A stretch of DNA of 64,000 bases from Callorhinchus milii (taxonomy: Eukaryota), in NCBI RefSeq assembly GCF_018977255.1, contig NW_024704742.1, positions 48,424,001-48,488,000 of the forward strand. The letters are read 5' to 3'. Of this stretch, positions 19,081 through 47,854 are shown piece after piece. Both the position numbers and the translations under genes were made by a program. Within the stretch, counting starts at the first letter, position 1, and each line of letters opens with the position of its first letter. Below the pieces are notes generated by a model that was not told where the DNA came from, made no database searches, and saw only the letters and a list, made by a program, of their open reading frames with translations.

Positions 19081-19164
19081 CTAGTGGCTTGGCCACAGGT
19101 AACATGCCCAGGTACTGAACATGAAACTTTTGTACCAGTTCCGTCTTTGGTGTTGGGAAATCTA
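19081..19164 (-). CDS. APBB2: APBB2 exon, start of PTB2
   Basis: atgcag|TAG...CTAG|gtaagt; 84 nt, phase 1 to 1; (V)DFPTPKTELVQKFHVQYLGMLPVAKPL. Confidence 0.96.
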
Positions 19165-20100: not shown

Positions 20101-22216
20101 AATACATTGGACATCAGCTTTTATATCATGTAGGCCATGACATAACAGTCAATAGATTTTGTGTTTTTCAATCAATATTTTTCGAACCATTGATCATCCA
20201 TTATTATTATTATTAATGATAATTAATATCATCATTAACTAAGAATGCACCAGGAATATTGAAACTATCGAGTACTCACTAAGGGTCTGTGGAATAATTT
20301 GTGTCAATTACGTGGACTCCCGACATGTTTCTCAAAAGCCACACCAGTGCTTTTGTTTTTAAAAAATCCTTTTAATTCTACTTCTGGCCACATCTGAATG
20401 AACTGGAAGCCACATCGAGCCGTGAAGCTGTATTTTATTATTGCAACCATCACTCTGTGAAAGGCAGTCGATGCAGTTGATGAAAATACGCACTTAAATA
20501 TTTGACTGTACAACTTCACTTTGACATCCTGCAATATTTAAGTGCAGTGACAACTTTAGAAATTCATTCTTAATTTTAAGATGTAAACCTGATTTGACTT
20601 TCATATCCTGTCATCAGTCAATCTAGTTCACCCCACATAAAAAAGAGATCTGAGACTATAGTTAACTATGGTTAACACCACAGGTAAATGAGGACCGAGA
20701 TAAGAGTGTGGCCTTACTTCTATCAAGCAAGATGCATCTCAACAACAACTTGCATTTATATAGCGCCCTTCATGCCGCACGGCATCTCGGAGTGCTTCCG
20801 AGACGTGAGCCAACTGAGTGGCCACCATTCTGAAACGTGCCACACCAAGGACAATGAACAGCCCTGAGTAGAAGATATAGCAACATTTGGAGCCAGGGAG
20901 AACTTCCAAGCCCGTGACAAGCCCGTGACAAGCCCAACTAAAGTTGGAAAACAAGTCAATTTCTAAACTGGAAAATGTCCACTGTGATACAGTGTCAATG
21001 ATAGCTAAAGAAGGCAGTGCTGCTGTTTCTGGAGGTGAGTATAAGAAACTGAAGCCCATTGCAGGTGTGGGCTGAAGTCAAACATTCATTAACTCAACAA
21101 AAGACACAAGGTGACAATTGGAAACTGGGTCATAGTGGTTTGAAACACACTCGAGACTGGGGAATCTGTGCTAAAATAATCAATTTGAGAACTTTTCTGA
21201 CTGTGAAAGAAACACTGTGACAGCCAGCAAATGGAGGAGGAAGAACAAAATGTGGTGTTGAGTGGTGGTTCATACACAGTATAGGCTTGGAAATGGAGCC
21301 GGGTGGAGGGAAAGAATCATGTGGCTGTTGTGATTGAAGCTTGTAAAGGAGATGTTCCTGTGGGCCTTTCTGTGAGGAGGTGACAGTAACCTGCTGTCTG
21401 TGCAGGACAAATTAATAAAGAAGAACATGCAGTTGTGGCGAGCCACACAACTGAAGCACTAACTAATGCTACACTGACCTCACATGTTAAAGCTACTCTT
21501 CTGTATTTATAAATCAGGTATGGAGCTACAATCTCATCCTAGCTTCTTAACCATTACTCTCATATCCAATTTAGGGTTGATGGACCTGTGAAGTCCATCT
21601 TTCTCAGGAGGATTTTCAAAGTGGTGGCTGAACATGGAAACAACACTCACTTATCCTGAAAGTAGATGGTGTCAGACTGAGATTCTAACACTACTGATAC
21701 GATGCATTGTTATGCAATACTTGATATTAAAGCTTTGAGGGACAACATTTCATCTAAATTTAGGCTACAAGACTGTTTTGTCTTAAAAACTAAGAGCATG
21801 CAGAATTGTGGAAAATTCTTAAATCTTATATATTGATAATCCTTTAATTTGATATATTGCCTTATCAGGTTGTTGAGACGTCTCAAAATGCTTCACAGGA
21901 TATCCTGTAAAGTGGATTGGCTGTATATTTAGCTTGAAAGCAGGTTTTCTGAAGTTCTTAAAAATACCAGATTGTAAATTAAGATTGAATTTTAGAACTT
22001 TACACAATTTGGGGCCTCAATTGTATAAAATATGATCACAGCAATTGAAAACTATAGACAAACTGAAGGTGTCTCACTTATGTCTCATTTTCATTTGCTT
22101 TACTTTCGTCATGGGATATATAAATTTAAGACATGTCAAAATGAGCGGCCTCAAAGAGGTTTATTTTTAAAATTCTCAACACATTGTGCATCCAGCTGAT
22201 GTTATCGAAGCATTAC

Positions 22217-22304
22217 CTTGCAGAGGAACCTCAAGGTTTACACTGACTCGCTCCTGGGAGACGCTGCAAGCCACAGCTTTGGCAGTCCTCCGTTCCGCCA
22301 TAAT
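22217..22304 (-). CDS. APBB2: APBB2 exon, PTB1-PTB2 linker
   Basis: ctgcag|ATTATG...CAAG|gtaatg; 88 nt; IMAERRTAKAVACSVSQERVSVNLEVPLQ. Confidence 0.95.
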
Positions 22305-23625
22305 CTGCAGAAATTGAATAATAATGTGATTATTATTCAAATGTTGAAACACAATAAAGATATTGCTTTATATTTATGGGTCCTGATACCCAAGCTGAAT
22401 GGGGCTTGTTGTGAGACAGATCAAGATCAGACAACCTGTCCAATGCAGTATGAACAATAAATCTTTGAATACTTACAGTACACCAATATCAAATAGTATT
22501 CTGTCTGTTAGGTAGCTCAATGCCTCTTGCTCTTTGCTTCAAAGCAAAAGTGTTTTGTTGGCAGTGCTCAACCTTTATGTACTGACATTGCTCTTAATAC
22601 CCAAGTGAGATGCCCAAAGATGGAAAAAGAGCAACACCAAAAGTGTAAGCAAGATAATTAACACAAGATGAAAAATGTCCTTCACATAATACTATTTCTT
22701 CCCTTTTCAGTAATCTTGTAGAGGAACATATGGGTCAGAAATTTCACCAGCCGCTTTTGTTAATTGAGCAGAATTCAAAATGTTTTATTCCTATTTTACA
22801 TGTAAACATTACTGAGGCTCTTTTTAAACCAGTGATTTATCATTCCAGAACTTGGCAACATGATGGAGAAAATTCAAATGTTTCTTCCTGTTAGACAGAT
22901 GAAACTCTTAAATTGACTATTATGCTGATGTACTGCTGTGCATGTTGTCTATAATGGAAAATTACTGAACACTTGTACTGATGTACCTTTAAGTGAAATT
23001 TTGCTAATAACTTTTGTAAATTGCTAGGCAATGTTAATGAGGAAGGTCTTTTCCTTATCCAATGTCCTTGGTGTGTCTAGCATGGTTATGAAGAAAAACG
23101 GATGCGCTAACAGACGACCTTTGTTATGTGAGATGTAAGACAAAGAACAGGTATCTGTGATAACTAGGTCACCCAGCAGCTATAGTATAATAGCTAACAT
23201 TGAAGAAAGGCTAATTTACAAATGTAGTAAACAAGTTGGGTCTAAATGTAGCTGAAAGTAACTGTTGTATTTAGAACAGACCTGGGAAGAAAGCACAGAA
23301 CCCACTATGCATCTGTTCTCCAGATTAGGTAACTTTGTCTTTTCTGTAGCTTTGCACTGTCCATAGTAAAGAATAATTGAATTAAACTGTTGTTGTGAGC
23401 TTGATTATCTGGTGTCCAAAACCAACATTCCTGAAAAGATTTTTTTTTATTGCAATACTCTCCACCCCCAAACTTTAAGAACTACAAAAGAGGAAGTTCA
23501 CCAGCACTTGGCACAAAGGACAGCTTCTAGGACATCACAGTAACTGCTTTCTTTGTGAGTCTTAGAATCTGTAAATGGCCGCTCAGAGAAAATGTCAACA
23601 AACTCACTTTGACTTCCAGTAAGTA

Positions 23626-23920
23626 CCAACAACAAATTACATTTGTATAACTCCTTTCAGGTCAGGACGATGTCCCGAGGCGCTGGACAGTCAAGGAGTT
23701 GCACCCGTATTTGGGGTTTGGGATCAGGAGAGGTGGAGGGCAGGGAGGGAAGGGGTAGGAGTGTGTCCAAAGGTGCAGTCGAAGAGGAGGGTCTTCAAAC
23801 GGGCCTTGAAGGAAGCAAGGGAGGAGGCGAGGCGAAGGGACGATGGGATGGAGTTCCAAAGGGGGAGGGCAGGCCAGAGTCCACTGAGCAGAGGGAGCGG
23901 ACAGGTTGGTGTGGGAACCC
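23626..23920 (-). mobile_element. L2 3' relic
   Basis: LWNSIPSSLRLASSLASFKARLKTLLFD plus L2 tail. Confidence 0.8.
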
Positions 23921-24157
23921 AGATGTAACATCTCATAGTTACAACAATAAGTTAATGTGTATTGTAATGGAACTTTGCACTGACCGAAGCCTCTCTGGAA
24001 AATATCCTAAAATTTCAGTGAAAGCGATGTAAAATTGTATGAAAGAAGGTTGATAAATTCCACTTTGCCACAAAATTATTTTTGCTGCAAAATACTAAGC
24101 AGTAGTCATAGACCCAAGAATGATGAAATAAAAAGCTGTAAACACTGAAAAAATTAA

Positions 24158-24530
24158 TTAAAACAGGAAATGCTGGGATGACTAGCATCTGAAAGAAAAA
24201 GGTAGATTAACCTCTTGAGTTTTAGCTTCAGACAGGGAGCCCTGCCTGTCAGCTGACTTGAAACCAACACGTTTTGAGTTTGATTCAACCTTCGATCTTT
24301 CAAGGTTGGAGTAAATGGTAACTCTTTGGGAGAGACATCAGGAAACCCAAGTCAGGTCAACATCGATGCAAGGCTGAGCATTTAAGACTTGAAAGTGCAG
24401 GCATTTCCTCAGTACGTAAGTGCTTTGAATTTGACAGGGCCAGTACAGATAAGCTGTGCGGAGCCAAGTCAGAAGAGTTCAGCCTCTGAAACGTTAACTA
24501 TCCTTCCCTTTCAGGCACTGTCTTGTTTCT
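24158..24530. mobile_element. Degraded inverted-end element, Penelope-terminus-like
   Basis: aaaacaggaaatgctgg...gcatctgaaag...gattaac on the left and ctgaaacgttaacta...ctttcag on the right resemble recalled inverted-end repeats common in cartilaginous fish. Confidence 0.45.
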
Positions 24531-26249
24531 AATTTTTGATCACGATAGCAACGCAAAAAAAAAGCATATTCCCATACAGACCAGAAACAGTATTTATAAT
24601 TTGTTCAGCTTCCTTGCAGACACAGCACAGACGAGAAGGAAGGTATTGCAAGGACTATATTACTTAATACTGCAAAAATAAGCAAAAATATTGACCTGAA
24701 GTGTGGGGCTAATTTCTCATTCAAACAGATCTTTAAGGCAATATTTGCGCATTGGGTTTTACATTGAATGCATCTGAGAACAATTCCACTTGCAAATAAT
24801 AAGGACGAACACTCACAGAGCAGGGAAATGAATTATTTTTACTGTCAATCATATTAGCACTGTTTGGTCTACAAATTTACATGTTGCCATCATTTACTTT
24901 AGAATCAAACTATTCTTTCATAACTCTCTCTCCAAAGCCTCCTACCCATCCTTTCCCTCTATGTTCTCAAATAGCTGCTGAAGACCTACATAATTGATAC
25001 ATAGACATGGATAAAACTCTCCTTGCTAATGAAGACAGTTTTATACCATTCAGCCAATGGGGAGAGTGTAATGTTTCAGATGGCACTGTTTGCCTTCTTT
25101 TCTTCCTCCTTCAGATACAACTTTTTCTCTTAAACATTCATAACTGTTAAGAATACCCACCCCCCCCCACCCCCGTTCCCGCTCAGCCTATGTAAGGTGC
25201 TTTGAGACCTTCTCCTAATGTGACAGGCACTAAATAAGCAAATTGTTCTTATATAATTGTTCCTGGCATATTCAAAATTGTTTTCTCTTTCTTCAATTTT
25301 AATACTTTGTGAGACATTGCTGCTGCTGTGTTTCACTACATTCTGCACCATTTTATTATTTATTTTCAGATCATCATCCCACTCTTTCATATGGCATGAT
25401 AAGCCAATAATCAAATACAAGTGTTATTATATAACAAGCAGTTATTATTATTACTATCATAATAGTGTCGGAAGCCCACATTTTTCCTAATGCGAGTTGA
25501 CAGATATAGGAGACCTAATTACAGCATTCATTTTTGAAGCCCATTTCTAGAGCCGTAAACCAACACAAATAACATTCTTCAACCCTGACAAGAGGCATTG
25601 ACTCAATTGTAACCAAGGCTGTGTGCAACAGAATTGTTCAAATAGCACTGGTCAGGTAATTAAACTGAAGAAGTGCATAAGATTTAAAGACATGGTCAAG
25701 TCATGAAGCATATCAGTGTTGAGCATTGTGTGCATGCTGAGTACTGAGGTTGTCATGAATGATCATTTCAGCAGAAGAGACGTTAAGAGCTGATTGATGT
25801 GATTGTGTTGAACAAGTTAATATAAAATTATAGAAACACTGACATGAATGAAATCATTTTCTAATGTCAAGTGTTATGAGATATTCTTGAATTACGAGAG
25901 TTTGTCTGAAATACTTGAGCCCTAGACCATTCATGTTATTGAATTATTGCCCCACACCTAATGACATGAATCTATTGATCTCTAAAACATCCATCTCCTT
26001 TTTAATGAAGACAGATGAAACCATTCAGCCAATGTGGAAAGTGCGATGTTTCAGATGGCATTGCTTACCTCCTTTGTTCCTCCTTTGGATACAACTTTTT
26101 CCCTGAAACATTCATAAAGTTAAGAGTGTACTTTGGGTGCCACACACCTAGCCTTCCCAGGAGGGTTCTTTTCAGAGCTCAATGCCTCAACCCAGCAAAA
26201 GATCAGTCTGTGACAGTTACAGTGCAGATAAAAGCAGCAGACACACATA

Positions 26250-26744
26250 GGGGTAGGAATTCTACCTGGATCTAGACTCAATCTATTTTCTTAGCATTGT
26301 AGAGCACATAGAAATCGGCAAATTCTTAATGTACAGTCTTAATTTTGAACCCAGAAATGATGAGCAATACATTAACATACAGAATTGCAGCAAACATTAA
26401 GATTTCAGGTACTTGAATGACAGTTTACACAGGCAGCAACAGTGAAAATATCAAGTCTAATACAATAAAGATCCCCCAGAAGTTGGTCACTTTAACACAT
26501 AAACTGGCTGGTGTACAAGGAACAAATGGGCTGGCTGAGTGCATGTCCAGTAATGGGATCGACACTGCCACTGTGTTACATCCAAATTTGCACTATAACG
26601 ACATACGTTACAACGGAGCTGCACTGTACAATTATTTAAATTTTAGATTCAGGGAGTTTAAAGCTAAGACCAAATTCAGCAATTTGCTAAATTCTTCATG
26701 CTAAGAAAATAAGAATAAATCTAGACCAGTGGGGATTTCTCCCC
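26250..26744. mobile_element. MITE-like element with long imperfect terminal inverted repeats
   Basis: Left gggtaggaattctacctggatctaga...tattttcttagcat pairs with right atgctaagaaaata...tctagaccagtggggatttctcccc. Confidence 0.7.
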
Positions 26745-26883
26745 AAAGGTTGTGATGAAAAATAGGTAGAATCCTTGTACTGAAAAAGGCTGAGAATATT
26801 TTACGAGCTCAGTTATGCTCGAAGCATCAGGCTATTATTCATCAGTAGCTAGCAACTAAAGTACATTGTACCCTTCCTCTCAC

Positions 26884-26998
26884 CTTGGAACAGATTTCGT
26901 GAAGACTGGTTGCGATGGCTTTCGCTGGTGTATCACACCGGAACACATGACATTTTAGGATTCGTGTATCTTTATCTCTTGCAACATAGGCAAAATCC
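26884..26998 (-). CDS. APBB2: APBB2 exon, C-terminal half of PTB1
   Basis: atgcag|GGAT...AAG|gtgaga; 115 nt, phase 2 to 0; [38 protein letters not shown], identical to the recalled human APBB2 sequence. Confidence 0.97.
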
Positions 26999-27171
26999 CT
27001 GCATAAACAAGAACACAAGCCATTAGTTAGTCCACGTCCCTGCAATTATTTTCCAATCCATCTTTGGTGCCATTTTCACTAGAAGATCAGGATTGATCTT
27101 AAACGAGTGCCATGCATTGATGCATTAATGAGTAAAGTATCATTTAACAGATGATTTGTGCATTGGAATCA

Positions 27172-27487
27172 AATAATAATAATCCTTGCATTTGATATAG
27201 CGCTTTTCACGTCGGGAGGACGTCCCAAAGCGCTTCACAGAACACACTGTAAAGTGAATTGACTGTATATTTGTGGGCGAACGCGGCAGCCAATTGCGCA
27301 CAGCAATGTCCCACAAACAGTCGTGGATTGAAAATGACCAATTTATTATTGTTTTTGGTTTTGGAGGATTATTATTAGGCTCTGTGTGGAGTAAGGAATC
27401 TTGCCCAAGGTTTCGCCCTCTGCCTGGAATTGAACTCAGGTCTCTCACTTGCAAAGCGAGTGCTCTAACCACTGAGCTACAGGACTC
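27172..27487 (-). mobile_element. Full-length young tRNA-headed SINE
   Basis: Near-identical reverse complement of 40298-40620. Confidence 0.93.
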
Positions 27488-28855
27488 CACAAAGGGTAGA
27501 GGGAGGATTTATTGATTTATTTTGGGGGGAAAAAATTAACAGATTAAACCAGCAACTAAAGGTAACCAAATTAGAAATCAGTAATTCAATTTCAGGAAGC
27601 AGGTTCCCAACAAACTCAAGATGGGCTCTTGCATTCAGAGAGCCGTTGAATATCTTAATTGGATTACCATGTTCTAAAGCTCACAGATATGTTGGTTGAA
27701 AGGCAATTGATGGCTTAAAGTATTCCTTGAACCATTTTTCAGTTTCGGGAGGCAGAAAAGGGAGGCAGGCACAACATCGGCCAGTATCATATACACAAGT
27801 GACACACAATGCATTTTTATGCAATTCGCAGGATGGCGTTGTGCATTTTTAAACAAGAAGACCGGTCACAGGCTTTTGCATCAAATCAATTCACTTTACA
27901 GTATATTCTGTGAAGATCTTTGAGACATCTAGAAGACATGATAAGGCGCTATATCAAATGCAAGGATTATTATTTATTATTAAGGTGCAACCTCTCTCAT
28001 TGCCGGATGATAAATTAATATTTGTTTTTATTCATCTCGGGATATTGAGGTGGGGCGTGAGGGAGAGGAAAGAGTGAAGCTGTCTGGGCTAACATTTATT
28101 GACTATCCCTAGTTATCCTGGTGGTGGTGATGGGTTTTCCCTTTAAATACTGCAGTGCTGGGATGATGGTGATCCCACATGGTGTTGAGGAGGAGTTCTG
28201 AGATTGTAGATGAAGGGCTGGAGATATATATCGAAGTCAGGATGACAAGTGACTTGGAAGCACAATATAAATTGATTCAATTCCACACACTACACATAAA
28301 ATAAAGATTGAAGCACCTTCACACACTACACAGCAAAATACACTCAAAACACGCTCCATTGTCGTTATTGCAATAGTTAATTTTTCGGGTCGCTCACTTT
28401 TTTTGCCTCCTGTAATAATTCACGTCACAGGTTACAGGTCTAATATTCCTTCAGATTCCACCTCGTGTGACAACTTGAAAAGGGATTTGTAACATGGCAT
28501 TCTGATGCTAATAATATGACTGTGTAGAAGATTATGAATTTTCTTTATGGCTTTAATGCAAGGATTCAGGAGCAGATGTACAAGATAAACTACTTTTTTT
28601 ATTCTTGCAGAACATGTCCTATGAACCCTTCTGCTGTTACACCACAGGTTGATTGTTAGAAAGCTCTTGTGATGAGATTTTCCTCAATCAGTTTGCCCCT
28701 TCTCAAGAAAATTGGAGATCACTGCAAACGTCAGCAAGATACCATCTATCAAACTTCCAGCTGAACATCATTTTTATGTAAAGTTAATAACAAAAACTGG
28801 TTAACCAAATGTAGCTGAATTGGCAAAAGAACTCTGAACAGCACCACAATCTTGT

Positions 28856-29075
28856 GGAGTCGATTGGCGGATCGCTTTTCCGGGAATAATAATCCCTCAA
28901 AAAAAATGTGGTCACTTAATCCATGACTGTTGTGGGACACTGCTGTGCACAATTGGCTGCCACGTTTCGCCCACAAATATACAGTCACTTCACTTTACAG
29001 TATATTCTGTGAAGCGCTTTGAGACGCCTAGAAGACGTGAAAAGCGCTATTTCAATTGCAAGGATTATTTATTAT
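28856..29075 (+). mobile_element. 5'-truncated long-variant SINE
   Basis: gtcgattggcggat...ataataatccctc...caaggatt. Confidence 0.85.
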
Positions 29076-29429
29076 ATGGAAGCTGGCAAACATCGGTTTC
29101 ATAACTACAGAGGCATAAAACTGGAGGCTTTGTGGTGAGTGTGACATTCACAGGAATTCCAGCCGTTCTACCACCTATGTGAAATTGGAACATGTAGTAG
29201 ACTTCTCTGCTGTGGTTTGGAGCAGTACAGAAAGCAAGCAGGAGTGTGTATGTGTGATCAGAAACAAGAGGATGTGGAGGGGATATTCTCATTGGCAAGT
29301 AAATATACAGGTCGCAGCTGCTGTGCGAGTCTGTTGGTCAATAATAATGACTTTCACACTGCCCAGATCATTGATAACAACTCACATTTATACAGTGATT
29401 CACATACAGGAACAGCTCAAATCACACGA

Positions 29430-29725
29430 GCAGCAGGCCATCCAGGAATCTACAGCCTGTCTCCTGTCCTCCATCAGGCTCAATGAACCCATCACCACAA
29501 TCCTCACTCCTCTCCACAGGCTCCCCATCCCCCACCGGATTCATTTGAGATCCTCAACCTCATGTTCAAATCCCTCCATGTCCTCGCCCCATCCTACCTC
29601 TGAAACTTCCTACAATCATAACAACATGGACACTCCTTGGCCAGCTACCAGTGGCTTACTTGTGTGAATCATTTGAGACATCTTCCTGAAATTAAAAGCA
29701 CTGTATAAAAACAAACTGCTGTTGG
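29430..29725 (+). mobile_element. Old L2 3' relic
   Basis: EPITTILTPLHRLPIPHRI resembles [18 protein letters not shown]. Confidence 0.65.
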
Positions 29726-30711
29726 TGCACACCATGCAGCGCATTGACAGGTTTAAAGATATTGATCCAAGGCATGGTTGTAGAGACCCATTATTTATAG
29801 ATTTTGAAGGCAGGGAGATGTAAGGTGAATAGTAAATTTACTGCCCAGCTATGCACTCTTCATATCAAAGTTGAAGCAGTGCGATATGTTAAATTTAGTA
29901 ACAGTCGTTAGCCATTGTCACCTGGGTACTAGGTTTCTAGAGCATAACCGACAACCTTTTTCATTCTGTGGCATTTTTATAGTGGGAACAGGACATATGA
30001 ATTCCCGATGTGTGAGCTGTCTGCTCTGAAAACACAGAGGTGGAGGTTTCCCATGGTTTAGAATTCACCTCTCTAACCTGCTTTCAAAACTCTTCTAAAA
30101 ACCTACCTCTTAACCCTTGCGTTCAATCACTTTCTCCTTACCCTCCTTTTCGTTCCAACTTGCTGAGTGTCTGAAACTGTTCATGTAATTCACTTTGAGA
30201 TGTTACTCTATGTGGAAGACTATATAAGTGCAAGTTGCTGTTGGTTGAAACTGCAGGCCTGTCGTTGCTGCTAATGTCACCAAAGGAGCCTCTGGTAAAG
30301 TCATATGATGCTTTCAAAGGTATGCTTATTGTGTGCCAATTAAAGGGACCCTACAGACTGGGGAGCATGCACATTTAAGTGAAAATCATTAAGTCATTAA
30401 TTTTTATACAGTATATAAAAAAATGAAATGCAAGTTCTATGAATCATGTTTGCACCTTTCCTTCAGATTTCTAAACACCAAAAACTCTGACTGGTTTAAC
30501 TTTAAGGCAACAATTGGGAAGAGTTACTTATCAATTGTTACTGTCCAGTGATATAAATTGTAGGCTAGATACCAGATCCACACCATCAATACACCACAAC
30601 AGGCATTCTTGGCTATGATCATTGTTTGGCAAAGTATTTTTATTTTCAGTGAATGCTGTGCCTACAAACCACACTTGGTACCAAGCAAAGTCCTGAGACT
30701 ATTTAACAATT

Positions 30712-30997
30712 AATTCAAATGCAAATTAGATAGATTTCTTTTAGAAAATAATATTTGGGGATACAGTATATGAGTAATTTGAGACATGAAATATAGTAAG
30801 TGAGGTATGTTTGAAAGAACTAAGGTCTAAGGTTCCCAAAGCATTCCACTGTGTTGGTAGTCTGATCCATAAGGGATTAATTGTTATCAACATCTCCATT
30901 TTTGTAGCAAGCGACTACCAGGATGGTAGAATGCAGACTTGATGGACCTTGGTCTTTTTTCGTCTAACAATTCCTATGTTCCTAATATTCCTATGTT
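30712..30997 (+). mobile_element. CR1-like LINE 3' end
   Basis: ttcaaatgcaaattagatagatt...gatggaccttggtc...(ttcctatg)n tail. Confidence 0.65.
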
Positions 30998-31854
30998 CAA
31001 TAAGTTACAGAACTGGTTCAATAATAATGTATTAGTTCAGAGTTTCTGTAAGCCTTTTTTGATCACATACCAACATGGGAGTGTACAGGTTTACCCACTA
31101 ATGAATGCCCATTATTGTATGTTCAGTATCGAGTTTGCATTGAACTGAAAGCACCAGAGATTCAGTCTATTAACTAATTATTTGGGAACTACTCTTCCAT
31201 TCTACACAAATAAATGACTTCTGGCTCCTGCAATGATCAACTGATTTATGCTGGATCATACGCTGTTTTAACAGCAGCTAAAAGCTATCAGGTTTACTGT
31301 TCTAAGCTATTACTGTTAATTGAATATTTTTCCTGACCCATTCTATACACAAGGGATATGTAGCACACAATGATTGCATGCATTCTGCTACTCAGTGCAA
31401 TTTATGTGATGTTTCTGTATTTATACCATCAAGCCTCAGTTACAGATATTCAATACCACATCTAACTGAGAGAAAGTCCTTTCACTGTTTCCTTCACATT
31501 AATCCCGTCAGTATCCTGGTAATTATTTTTACCCACAAACTTCATTCCTTGTCAAAGATGTGGCTAAGAGGACAGAACAGCTTAAGTTAAACACAGTGGA
31601 TTTTTAAAAATACATATAATTATTTTTTGAAAAAGATTAGTTAATGCCTATTGTTTCTCCTCCGCTACTGCAAACAAGGATTGTTTGCTGGGGTTGGGTT
31701 CTATAAGTGGAAAAGTTTTCAGGTAATGCATTTTAAAAAAGCATTTATATATTTTTGAAAATCCACTGTTTCAATAAAACTGAACATAATGTAAATGTTT
31801 AAATGATAACTTATAGACTTAAGATGTTCTGATAATTGATTCACACTCTAGGTT

Positions 31855-32125
31855 GATACTCTGATGCACTGATGGCAGAGGGAGGGTGCTCTTCAGTTAT
31901 TGGAGACGCCGCCCTTTGAATAAGACATTAAACCAAGGTCCTGTCTGCTTGTTCAGCTGGACCTTAAACATCCCATGATCTATTCGAAAAGAGAAGGCCA
32001 TTTCTCCTAGAGTTCTAGCTGACAATCCCACAAATAAAATTGGTCTCTCACTTTATGGCTGTTTTAGACATTGATGTGTGCAAATTGAGTGTTGTGTTTG
32101 CCTATAAATACACAGTCACTTCACA
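31855..32125 (+). mobile_element. Deu-domain-like SINE relic
   Basis: ggagacgccgccctttgaataagacattaaaccaaggtcctgtctgc...catcccatg. Confidence 0.7.
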
Positions 32126-33249
32126 TAAATGTTCAGTGCACCTCCCAATACACGCTTATCTCAGTTATTAATCTGTGGTTGAGCTTTTCCCTAAGTTTAC
32201 AAAGATGATTGAGTTTCTGGGATCAACTGTTCCCACCGTGTTGAGTAAGCAGCTCCTCCATGATGATGTACTTATTGGGTCCGTGAAAGTTCTTCTCATC
32301 CTGGAGATGGTAAAATGTATCTTTGAGCCCCACTCTCAGAGAGTATGTGTGTGTTGGGGGGTGGGGGAGACCATTATTTGGTTCCCATGAAGCCCTATTT
32401 AAATTTAGGAATATACTACATGTTTATCATTTTAAACACAGTCCTGATCTGGGCATTGTCGTGTTGTTCTTTGAATATATAGGTTTAGAAAACAAGGTGT
32501 TCTGTGTCAGCTCATTAGAACGGAAGACATTAGTGACAACAACATAATTATGTTCATATAGGCCCTTTCACGTCGGAAGGTCTTCCCAACGAAGAAACGA
32601 ATGAAGAAACTGATGCTGTCTGGAAAACATAACTTAACAAAACCCAGTTCCAAACATTGTCCACCAGATTCTGAATCATAATATTATATTACAATATCCA
32701 CGAAGAGATTTGATGGGAAAGGGGTCAAAGGTTGTAGAAAAGTGTAAGAGGATACCAGGGAACTAACAGGGAACAGATCAAGAGGACAATGGATTGAGTA
32801 AAGAAACCTACAAGGTCAGAGACATATTTGAGGTTTATGTTCTTCTGTGCTGTAAATTTCTATAAATCTATAATTTATTTTTTTGGCGGTAAAAATAGCT
32901 TCCCTTTGCTTAACGTAGCAGTGAATAGCAGTTTGCATCATTGGGATAGAGGTGTGGAGCTGTATGTGAATACAACCATATACACCTCAACGTTAGGTTA
33001 CATTTATTCTGACAAGATTTACTTGGCATGAAGAAGAATTCCCAAGGGTGTCTTGTACTGATACATTAGAGGTTTACTTATCCTAAGGGAATGCATTTAT
33101 TCCATAAAATAAAATCCCAAACTACAATTTTAAAACTCTTATGGTTACAGCACTCCTAGTAATGTACTGCCAGTTCATATTTAGATCTTATGTCTGATCT
33201 TACAAAACCTATACCTGGTAATGAACATACGTGACTTAAACATAAGTTT

Positions 33250-33745
33250 GTTGGCTCAGTTGGTAGCACTCATTGTTGAGTGAGAAGAATTACATAGCAC
33301 AGAAACAGGCCATTTGGCCCAACTGGTCTATGCTGCCGTTATGCTCCACATGAGCCTCCTCCTGCCCTTCCTCAACTAAGCCTATCAGCATAACCTTCTA
33401 AGATCCGGGGTTCAAAACCCAGTGTAAGGGCTCTGAACGTATCTAGTTCAGGCTGACACTCCAATGCAACATTGAGGGTTTGTTGCATTGTTGGATGCGT
33501 CACATCTTCCGATGAGATAAACCAAGGTTCTGTCTGCCTATTCAGGTGGTCATTAAACATCCCATGACACTTAAACTTCCTGGCCAACACTCGCCCTAAA
33601 TAAAATTGGTCATTCACTTAATGGCTGCTGAGCACAAACTGGCTCTACAAAATGCACAGACAATACACTATAACAATATAACCTGTGAAGTGCTTTGAGA
33701 CGTTCTCTTGACAAAGATGCTATGCCAATGCAAGGATTATTGTTG
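33250..33745 (+). mobile_element. Deu-domain-like SINE with an antisense CR1-type tail (about 33288-33400) inserted in its head
   Basis: tggctcagttggtagcactc head is split from gggttcaaaaccc by acatagcacagaaacaggccatttggccc... Confidence 0.7.
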
Positions 33746-34529
33746 AAAAGGAATTATTTCAAATGGGAAGCTACTTCTTATAGCTTCACATTTGAAATAA
33801 TAATTATTATATTATTATACACTATAGCATCTAAAATAACATTATTTTCTATATCAGCAATGATTACAATCAGATCTTCACTGCAATACACATAAACCAT
33901 TAAAAAATTCCATTGGATTTGAAAACTAATTTAAATAAAATAATAATCTTTACATGTGATATAATAATAAGTCTATAGAGCCTTGCATATCTGAAGGATG
34001 TCTCAAAGCGCTTCAGAGGATTTACTATAAAGTGTAGTGAGTGTGTAATTGTAGGCGTACACAAACATAAAGTGGTAATATTCCACTTAATGTTTACCTT
34101 TTTAATATTTATGATTTTTTTTCAGGAGTGAATCTTAGCTGCGATACTGGACATAAAATAATTAGTTAAGTTATGCAACTTTGAAACTATCAACGCAAAA
34201 CAATGTGTAGTACATCGGGAGATAAACAGGATTTCCGGCTACAGCATGAGCCGGTGGATCACCTGTACTAACTGTGCAGTTTGCTTCAAGGCAGATTGGG
34301 TAGGGAGCTGTACACCACACATCATCTTTAACAAGGGACCTAAATAATGAGCTGTCCTGAAGGCAGATCCAGCTGCTAAATATAGCTAGCAAATGCGAAA
34401 AGCAGTCTGGGAAAAGACGGTTCTTAAAAGAAATCAATTTCTTAACCACAAGTAAATGCTCAGCTATTTACACTTTGGGCAGCAACTGCAACAAAACACA
34501 AGCTACAATAAGAAAGAAAGATGTATTAC

Positions 34530-34535
34530 CTCTCT
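34530..34535 (-). CDS. APBB2: APBB2 6-nt microexon (AGAGAG) in PTB1, Fe65 'RE/ER' mini-exon equivalent
   Basis: Minus strand reads long polypyrimidine tract...ctctgctttcctggactcag|AGAGAG|gtaatac. Frame-preserving and phase-2 compatible with the downstream exon. Confidence 0.85.
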
Positions 34536-36725
34536 CTGAGTCCAGGAAAGCAGAGGGAATAAAGCAGAAAGAATGCAATCAACAAGAGGAGAATTTTTAA
34601 ACCCAGAGAAAAAAAGGGCAACACAGTGAAATACAATTATCACAATCCCAGATTTACCCAAACACTCATAAATTTGTCACACTTTGCAGTGGAAATTAGG
34701 CGAGAAAACAGACATGTCCCCCACAGTTAAGCAGCAAATTGCCTCAATACTTCTATCTACATCAGTGCTAGGGGCAAATGCAAATCAAAGAAAGGTTTCC
34801 TTTTCCAGAGCTGAAGAACTTGTTTCATTACCCAAAGTTTCAGACAAGGTGTATTTTGTGCTGTAATACTTATGCGATTTTAACACCACCAATCTCGACT
34901 CTGCTAAAAACCCAGAATGTAAACCCACCAAATTTAATGATGATGAATGACCTGAGACCCTTCTCAGAGTTGGATGGGCTGCTGTTTCTGCAGAGAGTTG
35001 CTTTAATCTCCAAAATGAAAAGCCAGAATGGCATCAGAACAATGGGAAATAGCGACTTTCCAAACATTTCGCCCACAAATATACAGTCAATTCACTTTGC
35101 AATATAATATGTGAAGCCCTTTGAGACGTCTAGAAGATGTGAAAAACGTTATATCAAATGCAAGGATTATTATTTTATTATTATTACATACTCTCCACAT
35201 TGTGTGTGTGGTGAGATGATGACAAGATGCATCACACATGTGCAAGCTTTTTGAAGTTTATTTTCCTTGTCAAACGGAACCTGGAAAAAGACTGGGATTA
35301 AAATGAAAACATTCAACCCATTGCCTGATCTCTGCTATTATTTTGCCAGCGATGATTGCACAAAATGCGTTTTTAAAGCTTTTGTGTGTGTGCAATGTGT
35401 CTGTTGTCACTCTATTTGCACAATAATGTCACATGTTACATGTCACATGTTCCCTCTCCTCCTTTGGACATGAGGAGGGAATGAATGAAAAGGTGGTGTG
35501 TACTCACAATAAACTGTTGAACTGTCAGTGCATCCACTTTGGCACTAGCGTCTGTGCCACAGAATCAACAATATAAAAGCAGCATAAAGGTCATTTTTCA
35601 TCAATTCTATACCTACCTGAGGTGTCAAGTTGCTTGTGCTTGTGGTACAAAATCAGCAAACGTAAGGAAATGGACCTGTACTGAGCAATTCTTATTTGCA
35701 CAAATTGCACAACCTGGTTACTTGTTGATCCTTGGATTATGAAATTATATTTACTTATGGAACAAATAATTCGGCACACCGCTCTTTTCACTGTGTGCCC
35801 ATGGCTTCAGTTAGCTGCACAAACTATTTCATCATTTGTTTGTCCTCCATCCAGGGGTCAGCCCCTGGACCCAATACACACACAATGTGTACTATAGTAG
35901 GCTCTGTAACCATACAGTCTAACAGCTAGAACTTGGTAAAGAGGAAAGTAGACAATATCAGCCACTTGCTGTTTGATCCATTCAGGCAGCTTCTATTCAG
36001 TGTCATTAAAGATTCTTTCATGTAGCAACACTACTACAATCAACCATACATTACGGTCCTGGAGAATGCTCAGCAATACATGACTGGCTTTCGTTAAAGA
36101 TCTATTCTTATAGAAAGAACCAGGGTTCCTTCTTTTTCAAATATATTTTTTGTGGATATAAACTAATCTGCTTGGAATTAATAACCAGCAATGAAAGAAA
36201 ATGAACATTATGTACTGCATGTTATGTTACAGCTATGAACAGTTGGCAAATTTATCTTTGAATTTTTCACTCCACAGATGCCATTATGGATGAAGAGAGA
36301 AAGAGGATGGGTGGCGGGGGGGAAGCAGGAGAGAAAATGCAGATCAATTGCATGGGAATTACTTACCATGCAGAACTGCAGTTTTTCTTCCATCTGATGT
36401 TGCTTATCTCCAATAAGCAGTTGTTAAAACACATACCATTCAAAACGTATCCAGCAATCACAAGCACGTTAATACTGTATGCAGCTAAAGGGCAGTAAGG
36501 AAGTAGCAGCCTAGTCATATCTGGTTTCTGAAGCACTGCCTTAGCATGTCATTCATTTAGTGCTGAAAGACTCACCTTCAACCCCAGAATTTAAACTAAG
36601 ACTGGAGAGGTATCATAATCTATGCCTCAGGCAGGCAGGAAGATTATTCTTCACTACAACAACTTGCATTTATATGGTGCCCTTCACCTAAGGTAATGGA
36701 TTGAACAGCGAGTTATGGGGGTTGT

Positions 36726-36865: not shown

Positions 36866-37463
36866 CAACAACAACAACAACAACAACAAGATTCCATTTA
36901 TAGAGCGCCTTTCACGTCAGGAGGACGTCCCAAGGCGCTGCACAGTTGGGTCATGACCCGAGCAGGGGGGAAATGGTCAGGGTGAGGGGAGGGAAGGGAG
37001 GGAGAGAGGAGGGGGGAAATGGTCAGGGTGAGGGGAGGGAAGGGAGGGAGCGAGGAGGGGGTAGAGAGGCGAGAGGGGAGCTGAAGGCACGGTCAAAGAG
37101 AAAGGTTTTGAGACCGGCCTTGAAGGAGGAAAGGGAGGAAGCGGCGAAGGCACTGGGGGATGGAGTTCCAGAGCCTCGGGGCTGAGAGGCTGAAGGCCCG
37201 ACCACCGATAGTAGGGCGGTTGGGGCGGGGGACGTGGAGCAGACCGGAGCCAGAGGAACGGAGGGTACGGGCAGGTAGGTAGGGGGATAGTAGGTTGGAG
37301 AGGTAGGAGGGAGCGAGGCCGTGAATGGCCTTGTAGGTGAGGATGAGGATCTTGAAATCAATCCTCTGGGGGATGGGGAGCCAGTGGAGGCGAGCGAGGG
37401 TGGGAGTGATGTGGTCCCGAAGCCTGGTGCGGGACAGTACACGAGCTGCAGAGTTCTGAATGA
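36866..37463 (-). mobile_element. Young L2 3' fragment, nested in an older L2 relic
   Basis: Near-identical to 45236-45830 including the (TTG)n tail; flanks (about 36655-36865 and 37464-37500) are a diverged L2 3' end. Confidence 0.93.
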
Positions 37464-39716: not shown

Positions 39717-40024
39717 ATAATAATGCTTGCATTTGATATAGCTCCTTTTCACACCTTCGAGACGTCTCAAAGCTCTTCACAGAATATACTGTAAAGTAAA
39801 TTAGTTGTATGTTATGTCGACAAAATGCGGCAGCCAATTGTGCACAGCAGTGTCTCACAAACAATCATGAATTGAACTGACCAATTTATTATTGTTTTTT
39901 TTCTTGAGGGATTATTATCAGGCGTGTGGAGTAAAGAAACCTACCCAAGGTTTCGCTCTGCCGGGAATCAAACCCAGGTCTCTTGCTTGCGAGGTGAGTG
40001 CTCTAACCACTGAGCTATAGGACT
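39717..40024 (-). mobile_element. tRNA-headed SINE, more diverged copy
   Basis: Head, body and tail all recognisable. Confidence 0.9.
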
Positions 40025-40034
40025 TTATTGATGT

Positions 40035-40755
40035 GATTCCTCTGATAGCTTAATGGTTAGAGCAGTTGCCTCGCAAAGCGAGAGGACCTGCGTTCAATTC
40101 TCGGGCAGGGCAAAACGGTGGGCAAGATTCCTTACTTCACACGCCTCTGTCTACCAGGCAGTAAGTAGGAACCCGGTTGTTAGTCGATTGGCGGATTGCT
40201 TTTTCGGGGATAATAATCTTTCCAAAAAAAACCAATAATAATAATTCAGTCACTCAATCCACGACTATTTATCGGACACTACTATGCGAGACACTACGAG
40301 TCCTGTAGCTCAGTGGTTAGAGCACTCGCTTTGCAAGTGAGAGACCTGAGTTCAATTCCAGGCAGAGCGAAACCTTGGGCAAGTTTCCTTACTCCACACA
40401 GAGCCTAATAATAATCCCTCCAAAACCAAAAACAATAATAAATTGGTCATTTTCGATCTACAACTGTTTGTGGGACATTGCTGTGCGCAATTGGCTGCCG
40501 CGTTCGCCCACAAATATACAGTCAATTCACTTTACAGTGTGTTCTGTGAAGCGCTTTGGGACGTCCTCCCGACGTGAAAAGCGCTATATCAAATGCAAGG
40601 ATTATTATTATTATTATTATGCGCAATTGTCTGCCAGGTTTTGCCTACAAAAGACAGTCAAGTCACTTTGCATTCTGTAAATTCTGCGAACCGCTTTGAG
40701 ACGTCTTGAAGATGTGATGAGACCCTATATCGAATGCAAGGAGTATTATTATTAT
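40035..40755 (+). mobile_element. Long-variant SINE interrupted by a young short-variant SINE
   Basis: Body breaks at ...ggacactactatgcg and resumes gcgcaattgtctgcc after 40620. Confidence 0.88.
40298..40620 (+). mobile_element. Full-length young tRNA-headed SINE (nested)
   Basis: Intact A/B boxes and (TTA)n tail; TATGCG duplicated on both sides. Confidence 0.93.
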
Positions 40756-43234
40756 AGCTTGATGGCACCTACTGCAATAGCACTGACAGACCAGAAGGTT
40801 TGAGGATTGAATTGTATTCAGTGCTGAGTTCGTCAACCGTACAGTACATCACTGTACAGTGACCCTGTGAAAAAGTACACATGTGGTAACGCAAGTTCAG
40901 AGAATGATCAGGCTCAGCTATAATCTTCGCAATAGCTGGCAACACCTGATAGTATCTATGCTCATACATGAAGTATGACCACTTGGGCAAAGCAGCCCTA
41001 CCAGGGTCAGAACTCCAACAAGAGTCCTCTTTGTGGAGAAGAGAATGCATTGGCACGGCTGGGACCATAGTTCGTCTGGCTAAGGAGAGTGCTTCTTTGC
41101 CAGACACTGGCCTTATATAATTTTAATGGTGAAAATATAAAGATAAAAAGTCAAGGAAGTGGCTGTGACTCCAAACTCAGCTCATACTAAACTGAAACAA
41201 AACATAGCAGTCAAATTAACTGTAAGACACCCGAGGGAGAAACCATTCTCCCAGAGGCGGGGTGTGTGGGAGAAGGCATGTTCAGGTCCTTTATCAGACA
41301 TTAAAATCTTAAAAGTTTTCATGCAGTTTCGTAACTGCAAATGTCTGTGGAGTCTGGGTCACTGTCTGCAAAGGATTTCTAAATATCCAATCCGGCTAGT
41401 AACAGATGTGTGTCACGTCAATCCCCCAGGAACTCCACTGCGATTTCCCCGGAAGGGGAGATCACATCACTTGGGAGTGGGGATGAAACGTGAAGCTCCA
41501 GGTTATTGGCAATCATGAATCCAGGTCCCGACTCTCTCATTTTAGACCCAGTCACTTCTGCATACAGACAATCAATTGTACAAACATATTGGTTGGATTG
41601 TGTACTAGTCTCGAAATGACACCAATGAAAATTAAGGAACGGAATTTCGTTTAGGAATACTGTGTAATTTGGAGACTACTATTCTATCGGCTGTAGTACA
41701 GTAGAGAGGAGAGGTGGAGGAGATTGAGGGGGGAGGAGAATACGACTGAAGCGGGAGAGGGGGAGGAGACTGAGGGAGAAAACCAAGGAAAATTGAGTGA
41801 GAGAACGGAGACAGGGTGTTTGACTGTATAATATAATTTAACTTCAATCTTACAAGAACTTGCATTTATATAGTGTCTTTCATGCATGGTAGCATCTCAG
41901 AGCAGTGTATGTTGGTGGCATTGAATAGCGAGCAAAGGAGAAGCTGAAGGTGATCAAAGGAGCAGTCAAAGAGGTAAGTCTTAAACTAGGATTTAAAGAT
42001 AAATAAAGGTTAGTGGCTGACCACAGCCACTGATGTTCCAATACAAGCGAATTGGCAGCACTGGTGGGAAGACTGCTGGGAATCATTTATGAGGATTACA
42101 GCAGAAGAGTCCATATCTCGATCAGCACGAGCATTTATTTTATTGATTATTTGCTTTCTGACAAGTTCTTCCATTAAAATTATTTTTTGGTTCACAATCT
42201 ACATCTGCAGAATATTGATTTCCAATGATTGTTTACAGTTGGATTACAGACAATCATTTCATGAAATGGGATTTAATCGTTATTTGGATAATTGAAAGAT
42301 GACCATCTGGTTCCCCACAGATTTATTTGGTGAAAGTGTAAAGGGCATAAGAATAAGAATTGTCCAAACAATCAATAATGGTCTCCCTTGAAGTAAAAAT
42401 ATTTAACCCAAAAACAATTCAGAAAGCCTTTCCTTAAAGCACTAAGTACTACTAGTTGAATGCTTTTACATCCAACAACCATTTATCATGTCAAAGTGGT
42501 TTTCATTTAATAATAATCTTATTTTTCATGCAGCCAGAGAGTGGCATTTGATTTTGGGGGGGATGTTTTGCAACCAATCCTCACTCGTGTTTAAAAACTA
42601 CTGTGCTCAAATTTCTTTTTAAAAAAAATCAAATCTACTTATCAACCCAAATGTTAATTCTACACAAAAAAATCAATTTGCTGCTTTAATACTCCGAGGA
42701 CAAATTAGCATTTTTATTTCTGTCAAAAACGTGGTGAGAATACCATAAACTGATGCCTTTTATAGGAATCTGTGGATTCAAAGTTTTTGCAAATTAATAC
42801 AAGGATTTAATTATCCTGTGCGACGCATAATTCGATTGCGAAAATCCAGCTTCTTATTAAACAAGGAAATGTGCTGCCTAATTAAAATAAAAAGCCCAAT
42901 GTGTATTTGTTCACTATTCAGCTCCTTCCAAAAGGCTGCAAGGAAATATGTGGAGCAAAGTTATAACATAGTAGTTGGGGAGAGGGGTCCATAAAATCAC
43001 ATCAAACACTATAGTAGGTCACTATAGCCAGTCAGCACGCCTGCATGTATATAGAAAGATGGCTCATCAGCGCTCCAAAACCCTGGCCATCATATGGGAA
43101 ACCAAAATGCCAACTTACAGGTCATCAGATCAATAATGTTACTTTCATGCGCACAGGAAGTGATGTCGGCAGCGACATGATAATCCTAGCTATTTTGACT
43201 TGTTGTTATTTAGAAATGCCAATAGAGCTAGCAA

Positions 43235-44282
43235 ATGGTTTTTCCTCCCGCCCTCGCCTGGTCACCTGTGGGGTACCCCAAGGCTCTATCATTGGCTCCC
43301 TTCTTTTCTTCATCTACATGCTCCCTCTCAGCGATGTCATCCGCAGACATGGGGTCAACTTCCACATGTATGCGGATGACACCCAAATCTGCTTCTCCTC
43401 CTCCAGCTGCTGATGTCCTGTCAACTTGTTTGACGGACATTAAGGTCTGGATGAGCACAAATTTCCTGCAGTTAAATATCATCAAGACAGAAGCCATACT
43501 CTTTGGATCCCATCAACATCTTCTCTCCTGCGGGTCTGAATTCCTCAACCTCCCCGGGTTCTCCCTCAGACTCTCCGAACCCATGCACAACTTAGGGGTC
43601 AGGTTCAATCCCCAGCTTTCCTTTCTACCACAAATCCATTCTCTTTCTAGCACCGCTTTTTTTCCACCTATGTCACATTGCCCACCTCCGTCCGTATCTC
43701 ACAACCGACACAGCTGAAATCCTCGTCCATGTCTTTGTCACGCCCATCTGAACTATTCAAATGCCCTCCATACTGGTCTCCCCAGTTCCACACAAAATCC
43801 AATTAATTCAAAGCTCCGCCGCCTGGACACTCACCCGCACAAAATTCTGTACCCCCATCACACCAGTCCTTGCCAGGCTCCACTGGCTTCCAATCACCAA
43901 ATCTTGATTTCAAGATCCTCTCAATCGTTTCCAAATCCCTTCATGCCCTCACACCTCCTTATCTGACCTGCTCACCCCTACTCCACCACGGGCTGCCTCC
44001 GCTCGGCTCGCTCTGGCCTCCTATTTGTCCCTCGTCCCCTCTGTTCCACCATCGGTGGCTGTGCATTCGGTCACTATGCCCGAAACTTTGGAACTCTCTT
44101 CCTCAATCCCTCCATCTTGCCGCCTTCCTTCCCACCTTCAAATCCCGCCTAAAGACCTTGCTTTTTGATCATGCTTATGATCACCTCCCCTCTCCCCCTG
44201 GCTCTTTGTCAGACTCCGCCACTGTAAAGCCCTCGGGTTTTGCTCCCCCGCATTAAGGGCACGGTATCAATGCTAATTGTTA
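43235..44282 (+). mobile_element. Degraded L2 RT-to-3' fragment
   Basis: [41 protein letters not shown] in shifting frames. Confidence 0.9.
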
Positions 44283-44832: not shown

Positions 44833-45235
44833 TTTACTGCTATTCTTAAGGAAGAAGCAGGGAAACTGGCTTAGAATAGTTGGCTCCAGTGGGAAGGCAG
44901 TACCAGCAGAGACATGATGTGCTTCCTTCTGTGCTGTAAACTCTCTATGATTTTGCCACCAAAAATCTCATAAGACAGTTTTACTTCAGCATCCTCTCTC
45001 CGTCTGCTCCTTTCTCATAATAATAATAATCCTCACGTTTGATACAGCCCTTTATCACATCATCCAGACGGCTCAAAGTGCTTCACAGGACATATTGTAA
45101 CTGACTGCATATTTTGTGGGCAAATGTTAGATTACATACTAGAGGTACAATCCACATGATCTTTTCAATTTCAGCCTCCATCTTTGGAACAGAATTACTG
45201 TCATCTACTGGAAGGGAGAATCACCTGGAGACATA

Positions 45236-47854
45236 CAACAACAACAACAACAAGATTCCATTTATAGAGCGCCTTTCACGTCAGGAGGACGTCCCAAGGC
45301 GCTGCACAGTTGGGTCATGACCCGAGCAGGGGGGAAATGGTCAGGGTGAGGGGAGGGAAGGGAGGGAGCGAGGAGGGGGGAAATGGTCAGGGTGAGGGGA
45401 GGGAAGGGAGGGAGCGAGGAGGAGGAAGAGAGTCGAGAGGGGAGCTGAAGGCACGGTCAAAGAGAAAGGTTTTGAGACCGGCCTTGAAGGAGGAAAGGGA
45501 GGAAGCAAGGCGAAGGCACTGGGGGATGGAGTTCCAGAGCCTCGGGGCTGAGAGGCTGAAGGCCCGACCACCGATAGTAGGGCGGTTGGGGCGGGGGACG
45601 TGGAGCAGACCGGAGCCAGAGGAACGGAGGGTACGGGCAGGTAGGTAGGGGGATAGTAGGTTGGAGAGGTAGGAGGGAGCAAGGCCGTGAATGGCCTTGT
45701 AGGTGAGGATGAGGATCTTGAAATCAATCCTCTGGGGGATGGGGAGCCAGTGGAGGCGAGCGAGGGTGGGAGTGATGTGGTCCCGAAGCCTGGTGCGGGA
45801 CAGTACACGAGCTGCAGAGTTCTGAATGACCTGCAGCTTGTGGAGGGAGGTGGCGGGAAGGCCGGCGAGGAGAGAGTTCCCATAGTCCAGCCTTGAGGTG
45901 ACAAAGGCGTGAACCAGGGTTTCAGCAGCGTGAGGGGTGAGGTAGTGCCGTAGTCTGGCGATGTTCCGGAGGTGATGGAAGGCGGTGCCAGTTGTGGTGC
46001 GGATGTGAGGGAGAAAGGACAGCTCAGGGTCGAACAAAACGCCGAGGTTCCTGACTGGCTTTGAGAGGTGGAGAGTGCAGCCTTGGATGCTGATGGTGTC
46101 AGCGCCTGAGGTGCGGAGGCGCTGACGTGAGCCAATCAGGAGGGCCTCGGTTTTTTGCACGTTGAGCTGAAGAAAGTTGTCTCTCGTCCAGGACTCGATG
46201 TCGGACAGGCAGGCTGTCAGGACATCGGTGGTCGTGGAGTTGAGAGTAGAGGAGGAAAGGTAGAGTTGGGTGTCATCCGCATACATGTGGAAGTTAACCC
46301 CATGTTTGCGGATGATGTCACCAAGGGGGAGCATATAGAGGGTGAAGAGGAGGGGACCGAGGACAGAGCCCTGAGGGACACCACATGAGACAGTACGGGG
46401 GGTGGAGGAGAAGCCATTCGTTGAGACGAAGTGAAGACGGTGAGAAAGGTACGACCTAAACCATTCAAGGACAGTGCCTTGAAAGTTGAGGTGGGAGGAC
46501 AAGCGGTGGAGTAGGATAGTGTGGTCGACCGTATCGAATGCTGCCGATAGGTCGAGGAGGACGAGGAGACAGAGGGAGCCCTGGTCACAGATGGTCAGGA
46601 TATCATTGGTGACCTTGACCAGGGCAGTTTCTGTGCTATGAGCAGCACGGAAACCTGACTGAAGGGGTTCAAAAAGAGAATGGGTGGAGAGGAAAGAGCG
46701 CAGTTGGGAGGCGACAACTCTTTCCAAGACCTTGGAGAGAAAGGGGAGGTTGGAGATGGGCCGGTAGCTTGATAGCTGCGACGCATCAAGGGAGGGTTTT
46801 TTCAGGGTGGGCGTGATGATGGCAGTTTTTAATGGAATGGGGACAGAGCCAGAGGAGAGGGACAGGTTTATGATGTCAGTGATGTGTGGGACAAGAAAAT
46901 GGAGCTGGGAGATAAGGAGTGGAGTGGGGATGGGGTCAAGGGAGCAGGTGGTTGGTTTTAGGGATAGGATGAGTTCAGTGACAGAGGGTGGGGAAACGGG
47001 TACGAAGGTGTGTAGGGGAGGATGGGTAGGAGTCGGAGTGTGGGAGGGAAGGGGTGGGTGGTGGGTGGAAGTTGGAGGGGAAGTGACCGCGGAGCGGATT
47101 CCCTTGATCTTGGATTCAAGGAAATCCAGCATCTCCTCGCAGTGAAGGTTGGAGGAGATGACCTGCGCGGGGTGGCGGGGGGGACGGAGGAGTCGGGATG
47201 TGGTGGAAAACAGTAGCCTGGGGTTGTTCTTCGCCTCCAGGATTATCCTGGAGTAGAAGGACGACTTGGCCGAGGCTAGAGTGGAGCGGTAAATTTTGAG
47301 GAGGTCCAGCCAGATTTGTCGGTGGACCGTTAAGCCGGATTTGACAAAGGTGCGCTCAGCAGCCCGCACCTGGCATTTCAGTGAGCGGAGGTGGGTGGTG
47401 TACCAGGGGGAGGAGCGGGAGTAGGAGACAGTGCGGGAAGTGATGGGGGCAAGAGTATTGAGTGTGGAGGAGAGGATATTGTGGAGGAGGGAGAGAGGAG
47501 AAGAGGGGTCGGTGAGGGTTGAAGGCCAGAGGGAGAGGAGTTCAGAGGACTCCAAGGCATCGGTTAGGGATTGTGGGGGTAACTTCTTCCAAGGGCGGTA
47601 GAAGATGGTGGTGGGTCTGGTGGAGGTGGGGAGGGGGGTGGAGGTGGTGAAGGAGATGAAGTAGTGGTCGGAGATGGCCTTGTCGGTAATAGTGACATCC
47701 GAGACACTGAGGCCCCGGGTGATCACCAAATCGAGTGGGTGGCCGTGACTGTGAGTGGGGGAGTTTATGTGTAGGGAAAGGTTGAGTGAGGAGAGCAGGG
47801 AAGAGAAGTCTGTGGAGATGGAGCAGGAGGGGGTGAAGTGTAGGTTAAAGTCGC
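45236..47854 (-). mobile_element. Young L2-clade LINE, 5'-truncated within the endonuclease domain
   Basis: Continuous ORF2 homology, 3' UTR with 46-nt tandem duplication, terminal hairpin and (TTG)n tail; flanked by ACATA at 45231-45235 and 47855-47859 (candidate TSD). Confidence 0.95.

Follow-up and report, generated by a model that had tools for sequence, protein, structure and literature searches.

The six bases AGAGAG at positions 34535–34530 of the minus strand are a genuine microexon of APBB2 in Callorhinchus milii. The window, i.e., the whole 64,000 nt stretch of DNA that was analysed, contains this cassette exon (phase 2 to phase 2) together with the six coding exons that follow it. 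The microexon is already known, and is already present in RefSeq for C. milii. The explanation we prefer, with a probability of about 0.86, is that it represents the C. milii copy of a conserved APBB2 microexon that would be skipped by default and included in neural cells under the control of SRRM3/4, so tuning the binding of the PTB1 domain. Neural, SRRM3/4-dependent inclusion is likely in C. milii by orthology; the tissue pattern, the regulator and the effect on binding are inferred for this species from orthologs and from a paralog.

Microexon, host gene and reading frame

The microexon (34530–34535, minus strand) is bounded by a CAG 3′ splice site at 34536–34538 and a GTAATA 5′ splice site at 34524–34529, exactly as the first-pass annotation had quoted it, between an acceptor and a gtaatac donor. 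Its 6 nt preserve the reading frame, introduce no stop codon and fall within the 3–27 nt range of microexons. The two residues added to PTB1 are Glu512 and Arg513 (numbering of the C. milii protein P0240). Intron phase 2 was taken from the downstream exon and the annotated proteins, because the upstream PTB1 exon is outside the window. Contigs from two of four sequencing runs cross the site without any difference (X2, 34252–34595; X4, 34009–34889), showing that the microexon letters are not an assembly error. The site lies in a repeat-free island, which had been put forward as part of the case for the exon. The island is real (34058–35062, about 1 kb) but unremarkable in the window, and was discarded as evidence; self-BLAST repeats account for 16% of the window, in which no fewer than 12 repeat-free gaps exceed this one in length.

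Downstream of the microexon are six exons whose translation runs from the second half of PTB1 through PTB2 to the C-terminus of an APBB protein. The first (26884–26998, minus strand, as are the others) begins with Asp-Phe-Ala-Tyr, provides the second half of PTB1, and is covered by a spliced contig from run X1. It is followed by exons at 22217–22304, 19081–19164 (with tandem acceptors at 19164 and 19161), 18756–18871 and 16863–17042 (the last two encoding PTB2), all four placed by matches to C. milii proteins, and by the last coding exon with its stop codon at 15807–15974 (coding part 15974–15810). The PTB labels derive from protein matches and structure comparison (3D8D, 2ROZ). One PTB2 exon shows 100% identity to C. 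milii APBB2 and 92–95% to shark and ray APBB2, and the best hits that carry a gene name are APBB2. The exon flanking the microexon is 97% identical to APBB2 proteins and carries several residues unlike Fe65, which identifies the gene as APBB2 rather than its Fe65 paralog. The protein matches thus bear out the earlier assignment of the host gene to APBB2, of the Glu-Arg insert to PTB1, and of the DNA to a cartilaginous fish.

The coding sequence agrees with the annotated C. milii APBB2 isoforms without any difference. Microexon and six exons together account for 251 of 251 residues of X1, X2 and XP_007887352 (P0240, P0243 and P0246), and for 250 of 250 residues of RefSeq X4 when the alternative acceptor is used; the exons without the microexon account for all 249 residues of the skipped forms. 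The tandem (NAGNAG) acceptor at 19164/19161 of the minus strand adds or removes one Val, and both forms occur in RefSeq for C. milii, other sharks and human.

Among the 11 C. milii APBB2 proteins, four read GRDNGRERDFAY (RefSeq X1, X2, X4 and XP_007887352), five read GRDNGRDFAY, i.e., the skipped form, and two have an aberrant or missing junction. The insert-bearing RefSeq proteins include XP_042197467.1 and XP_042197471.1; RefSeq XP models are predictions. As four of the 11 proteins carry the insert, annotation did not overlook the microexon in C. milii, and the expectation that it would be easily missed is untrue for this species. Of the 280 proteins fetched in total, 25 carry the insert, 229 are skipped forms and 26 are other. 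The Glu-Arg insert was also seen in catshark, bamboo shark, gar, eel, birds and mammals; it is absent from the models listed for most other sharks and rays, and from the seven human proteins inspected. Either annotation often leaves the microexon out in other species, or those listings are partial.

Some models differ around the junction. Three teleost models (P0059, P0120 and P0104) show Asn-Arg or Ser-Val inserts, or an altered upstream motif, and may represent diverged microexons or model errors. In short amniote APBB2 models (P0008, P0010 and P0016), a different first exon leads to Glu-Arg before Asp-Phe-Ala-Tyr, an arrangement suggesting that an internal first exon lies 5′ of the microexon. 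The shark models P0124, P0125 and P0129 have another short N-terminus.

The intron search covered the 37,002 nt that lie inside the window; the upstream PTB1 exon and the intron past 64000 are outside it. Within the 37,002 nt, only the site at 34535–34530 has the form AG-6 nt-GT/GC and is able to code Glu-Arg. It is also the one site with the full pattern (YAG, 6 nt coding R|E|R, GTR, a pyrimidine tract and TGC), which arose in one of 300 third-order Markov simulations. The bare insert-coding motif is much commoner, appearing by chance in 10–56% of simulated introns according to strictness (10% for the 37-kb bare motif), and the microexon 13-mer was present in 25 of 100 shuffles when one mismatch was allowed. 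The frequency of the bare motif, and the position of the upstream intron part outside the window, speak for a chance pseudo-exon, the annotated Glu-Arg then being supplied by a splice-site shift or by intron sequence beyond the window. We consider this highly improbable, because the site is the single significant match to a fish intron (see below), where the only change in the exon is synonymous. Moreover, extending the downstream exon by the six bases ahead of its acceptor would not yield Glu-Arg, and with a shifted donor the insert would begin with GT or GC, which appears incompatible with Arg-Glu. The same intron has 13 further short AG..GT candidates with strong tracts, all rejected because they do not encode Glu-Arg.

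Conservation of the exon and its flanks

A scan of metagenome contigs gave two loci (L001 and L002) from 160 candidate stretches, both resembling bony-fish apbb2 by protein similarity. These vertebrate apbb2-like loci within a metagenome collection are presumably host-derived DNA, and the sequence divergence between them appears enough for them to be the two teleost duplicates. L002 holds 2.9 kb of the upstream intron and carries the orthologous 6-nt exon at its positions 512–517, with one synonymous change, an identical CAG acceptor and the first five bases of the donor in common.

The conserved block extends over 48 nt (34517–34564, minus strand) at 81% identity (E 1.2e-6), and is the sole match below E 0.09 between the C. 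milii and L002 introns. Its alignment score of 54 compares with a maximum of 40 in 500 shuffles, and the 40 upstream bases by themselves recover the same place in L002. The prediction that the flanks would be conserved in another vertebrate APBB2 intron was therefore upheld, in one comparison. The L001 locus showed no microexon in about 415 nt upstream, which is all that it holds there, and scans of prokaryote and viral contigs with the conserved-flank pattern gave 0 matches each.

The exon corresponds to the vertebrate APBB2 microexon (HsaEX0005072 in human, DreEX0013859 in zebrafish) in gene, intron position, phase, length of 6 nt, and the Glu-Arg placed before Asp-Phe-Ala-Tyr. The distance from the microexon to the next exon is 7.5 kb in C. 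milii, 2.4 kb in L002 and about 1 kb in zebrafish. The first-pass annotation had inferred a conserved switch in a cartilaginous fish. Conservation of the exon and flanks stands, but the switch is not new: the APBB microexon is a textbook example, published as conserved in vertebrates and inferred to be ancestral to bilaterians. Li et al. 2015 (PMC4317164) describe a 6-nt exon at the paralogous position of APBB1, 2 and 3, with both splice forms in fish, chicken and mammals. The APBB1/2/3 exon is inferred to be bilaterian-ancestral in a study whose species set includes C. milii, and is one of just two neural exons to which such an origin is assigned there among 20 species (10.64898/2026.09.05.749416). 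The C. milii microexon is useful as a positive control, in that a 6-nt exon can be spotted in raw DNA, and, for minigene work, as an allele from an early-branching vertebrate.

Regulatory sequence and the predicted hairpin

A UGC at −17 from the acceptor (34550–34552, minus strand) is a candidate SRRM3/4 enhancer, its function being assigned from published work, and L002 also has TGC at −17. Further UGCs lie at −31 and −42 (34564–34577), positions at which L002 has none, and another TGC is found at −85. A 14-nt tandem duplication in the pyrimidine tract (34547–34574) doubles the UGC into the −31 and −17 copies, where the fish locus has a single one. The pyrimidine-rich zone upstream of the acceptor is free of AG (34538–34664, minus strand), with the nearest upstream AG at −131, and L002 is likewise without another AG in 200 nt upstream. 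This zone of 131 nt compares with 5–63 nt at the seven other acceptors of the gene, and the pyrimidine share from −50 to −4 is 77%, against 47–64% at those seven. All three elements reported in the first-pass annotation (a TGC just before the exon, more TGCs upstream, and a long pyrimidine tract) are thus present. A motif scan gives a branch-point-like TTGAT at 34578–34582 (minus strand) with a candidate A at −44; the median branch-point distance of neural microexons is given as about 45 nt (PMC12871342). The RBFOX motif TGCATG is absent from the 200 nt upstream and 300 nt downstream of the microexon.

A UGC between the candidate branch point and the AG, together with a long pyrimidine tract, is the sequence arrangement of the SRRM3/4 programme. 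UGC is a common triplet, and the TGC motif alone is weak evidence, because another acceptor pair of the gene also has TGC within 30 nt. Likeness to the programme extends to exon length (3–27 nt), a preserved frame, a distant branch point and location in an interaction domain; the assignment in C. milii comes from sequence and orthologs, the tissue pattern having been measured in human and zebrafish.

The ortholog data are as follows. The PSI of human HsaEX0005072 rises from 0 with GFP to 91.7 with SRRM4, according to the supplement of PMC7935315, which also reports APBB1 HsaEX0005055 as SRRM4-responsive. For zebrafish apbb2b (DreEX0013859), the supplement of PMC12626424 gives a PSI of 94.7 in neural tissue and 96.9 in endocrine pancreas, 0–14 in eight other tissues with data, and, in the eMIC column, a fall of 34. 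The chicken APBB2 microexon rises in brain development, and its function is listed as unknown in PMC12871342. Minigenes from shark to mammals show a like SRRM4 response in human cells (Bonnal et al., 10.1101/2024.09.17.613571), APBB2 being unnamed in the text consulted; the same study finds UGC important yet not strictly needed for the response. A literature search found no paper on the apbb2 exon and srrm3, and HsaEX0005072 was not found in main texts.

On the preferred explanation, the exon would by default be too short to be defined, and so would be skipped. In cells expressing SRRM3 or SRRM4 (neurons and probably endocrine cells), the UGC at −17 and the long tract would allow the acceptor to be recognised and the exon to be included. 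Inclusion would keep the frame and add Glu-Arg to a loop of PTB1, where it may tune the binding of partners in the way described for APBB1 and Kat5/Tip60. The microexon may instead be spliced without a sharp SRRM3/4-driven neural switch in C. milii, its inclusion being broad, low or under other regulation such as PTBP1 release or RBFOX. TTCT/TCTT motifs abound in the tract on both sides of the microexon, as is typical of PTBP1 sites. The human neural-versus-other difference is also lower for APBB2 (65) than for APBB1 (81), as tabulated in PMC12626424. Since the exon responds to SRRM3/4 in both human and zebrafish, two species that bracket the bony vertebrates, the position of the UGC is conserved in L002, and no TGCATG lies nearby, such weaker or different regulation is unlikely.

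The closest functional data are those for the APBB1/Fe65 6-bp mini-exon (HsaEX0005055), which occupies the paralogous position, adds the same residues to PTB1 and is SRRM4-responsive. It is a paralog and not an ortholog, and the Kat5/Tip60 effect has been reported for APBB1 alone. A review (PMC3296194) describes the Arg-Glu form of Fe65 as neuron-specific, and the APBB1 microexon is reported to strengthen binding to Kat5/Tip60, and to APP less so (PMC4387716, PMC8911335). The insert of C. milii APBB2 is also present, in the same place, in the crystal construct of Fe65 PTB1 (3D8D). PDB entry 2ROZ matches only residues 583–706 of P0240 (PTB2), while the insert (512–513) sits in PTB1. The direct contact with the APP tail proposed by Li et al. 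2015 was mapped on 2ROZ and so rests on the other domain.

The microexon is also covered by a predicted hairpin, the 5′ arm of which (34598–34625, minus strand) pairs with 34522–34544, a segment that includes the acceptor, exon and donor. The duplex has 23 pairs, six of them G-U, with one 5-nt bulge, and a predicted energy of −25.8 kcal/mol that two of 2000 shuffles equalled. Its pairing probability is 0.94 in contexts up to 500 nt on each side. None of six other APBB2 acceptors beat their own shuffles in the same duplex test, and the same strength was reached at nine of 5798 sampled positions of the window and at none of 289 composition-matched positions. The folding z-score of the region is only −1.2. 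At L002 the equivalent duplex has −11.8 kcal/mol and was matched by 505 of 1000 shuffles, so a conserved hairpin was rejected for that locus as no better than chance; of the two loci compared, C. milii alone has the strong prediction.

The hairpin could hide the acceptor, exon and donor, making skipping partly structural, with assembly of SRRM3/4 opening the fold; this would add to the preferred explanation rather than replace it. In the form proposed for the chimaera lineage, the hairpin would keep the microexon off while the branch point, tract and UGCs are held in a loop of about 50 nt, and SRRM3/4 would act as a structure-opening switch. Both the general and the lineage-specific forms of this idea are doubtful. 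The energy of the duplex, rare in shuffles and in window positions, speaks for it, as does the listing of APBB2 with predicted covariation in a 2026 preprint (PMC12871342). The same preprint found no general support for covariation-maintained structures around microexons. The target was picked after the fold had been seen, making the test post hoc, and a purine-rich exon pairs readily with a U/C tract, in this case with six of 23 pairs G-U. The regional z-score and the chance-level duplex of L002 also count against it. A weaker version of the arm, as an aligned block at a similar distance, may still exist in bony fish. A limited literature search found no paper linking the Apbb microexon with a sequestering stem-loop. 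If functional, the hairpin would be the only new element of the locus, a clear example of an SRRM3/4 target controlled by RNA structure.

Transcript contigs and neighbouring features

Ten of 13 rows listed for sequencing runs contain the exon; none of the listed runs that contain it is on record as RNA, and tissues are not given. The spliced X1 contig covers the downstream exon (26998–26884) from edge to edge, with unlisted letters beyond, and does not discriminate between the isoforms because both can end in AG there. Four runs mapped on 22100–35050 were swamped by repeats, and the absence of a microexon joint among the joints listed speaks neither for nor against splicing. Contigs of X1 and X5 give no cover near the microexon.

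An extra exon follows the microexon, ahead of the next coding exon, at 30107 to about 30359 on the minus strand. A contig from X5 joins it (donor GAG|GTAGGT) to the exon at 26998, and a contig from X2 ends at the same edge. It carries an in-frame stop codon and thereafter no in-frame ATG, which makes it a probable 5′ UTR exon belonging to an internal start. Transcripts starting there bypass the microexon, and the next in-frame Met leads to a PTB2-only form of 210 aa, like annotated forms of catshark and ray.

Copies of a short interspersed repeat are abundant in the window (27165–27493, 27886–27982, 28858–29080, 35063–35184, 39717–40755 and others), with up to 20 self-matches, and the repeat is very deep in the sequencing runs. 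Fragments near 36868–37463, 43000–44250 and 45231–46433 are presumably LINE-like, the repeat classes being our own assignment.
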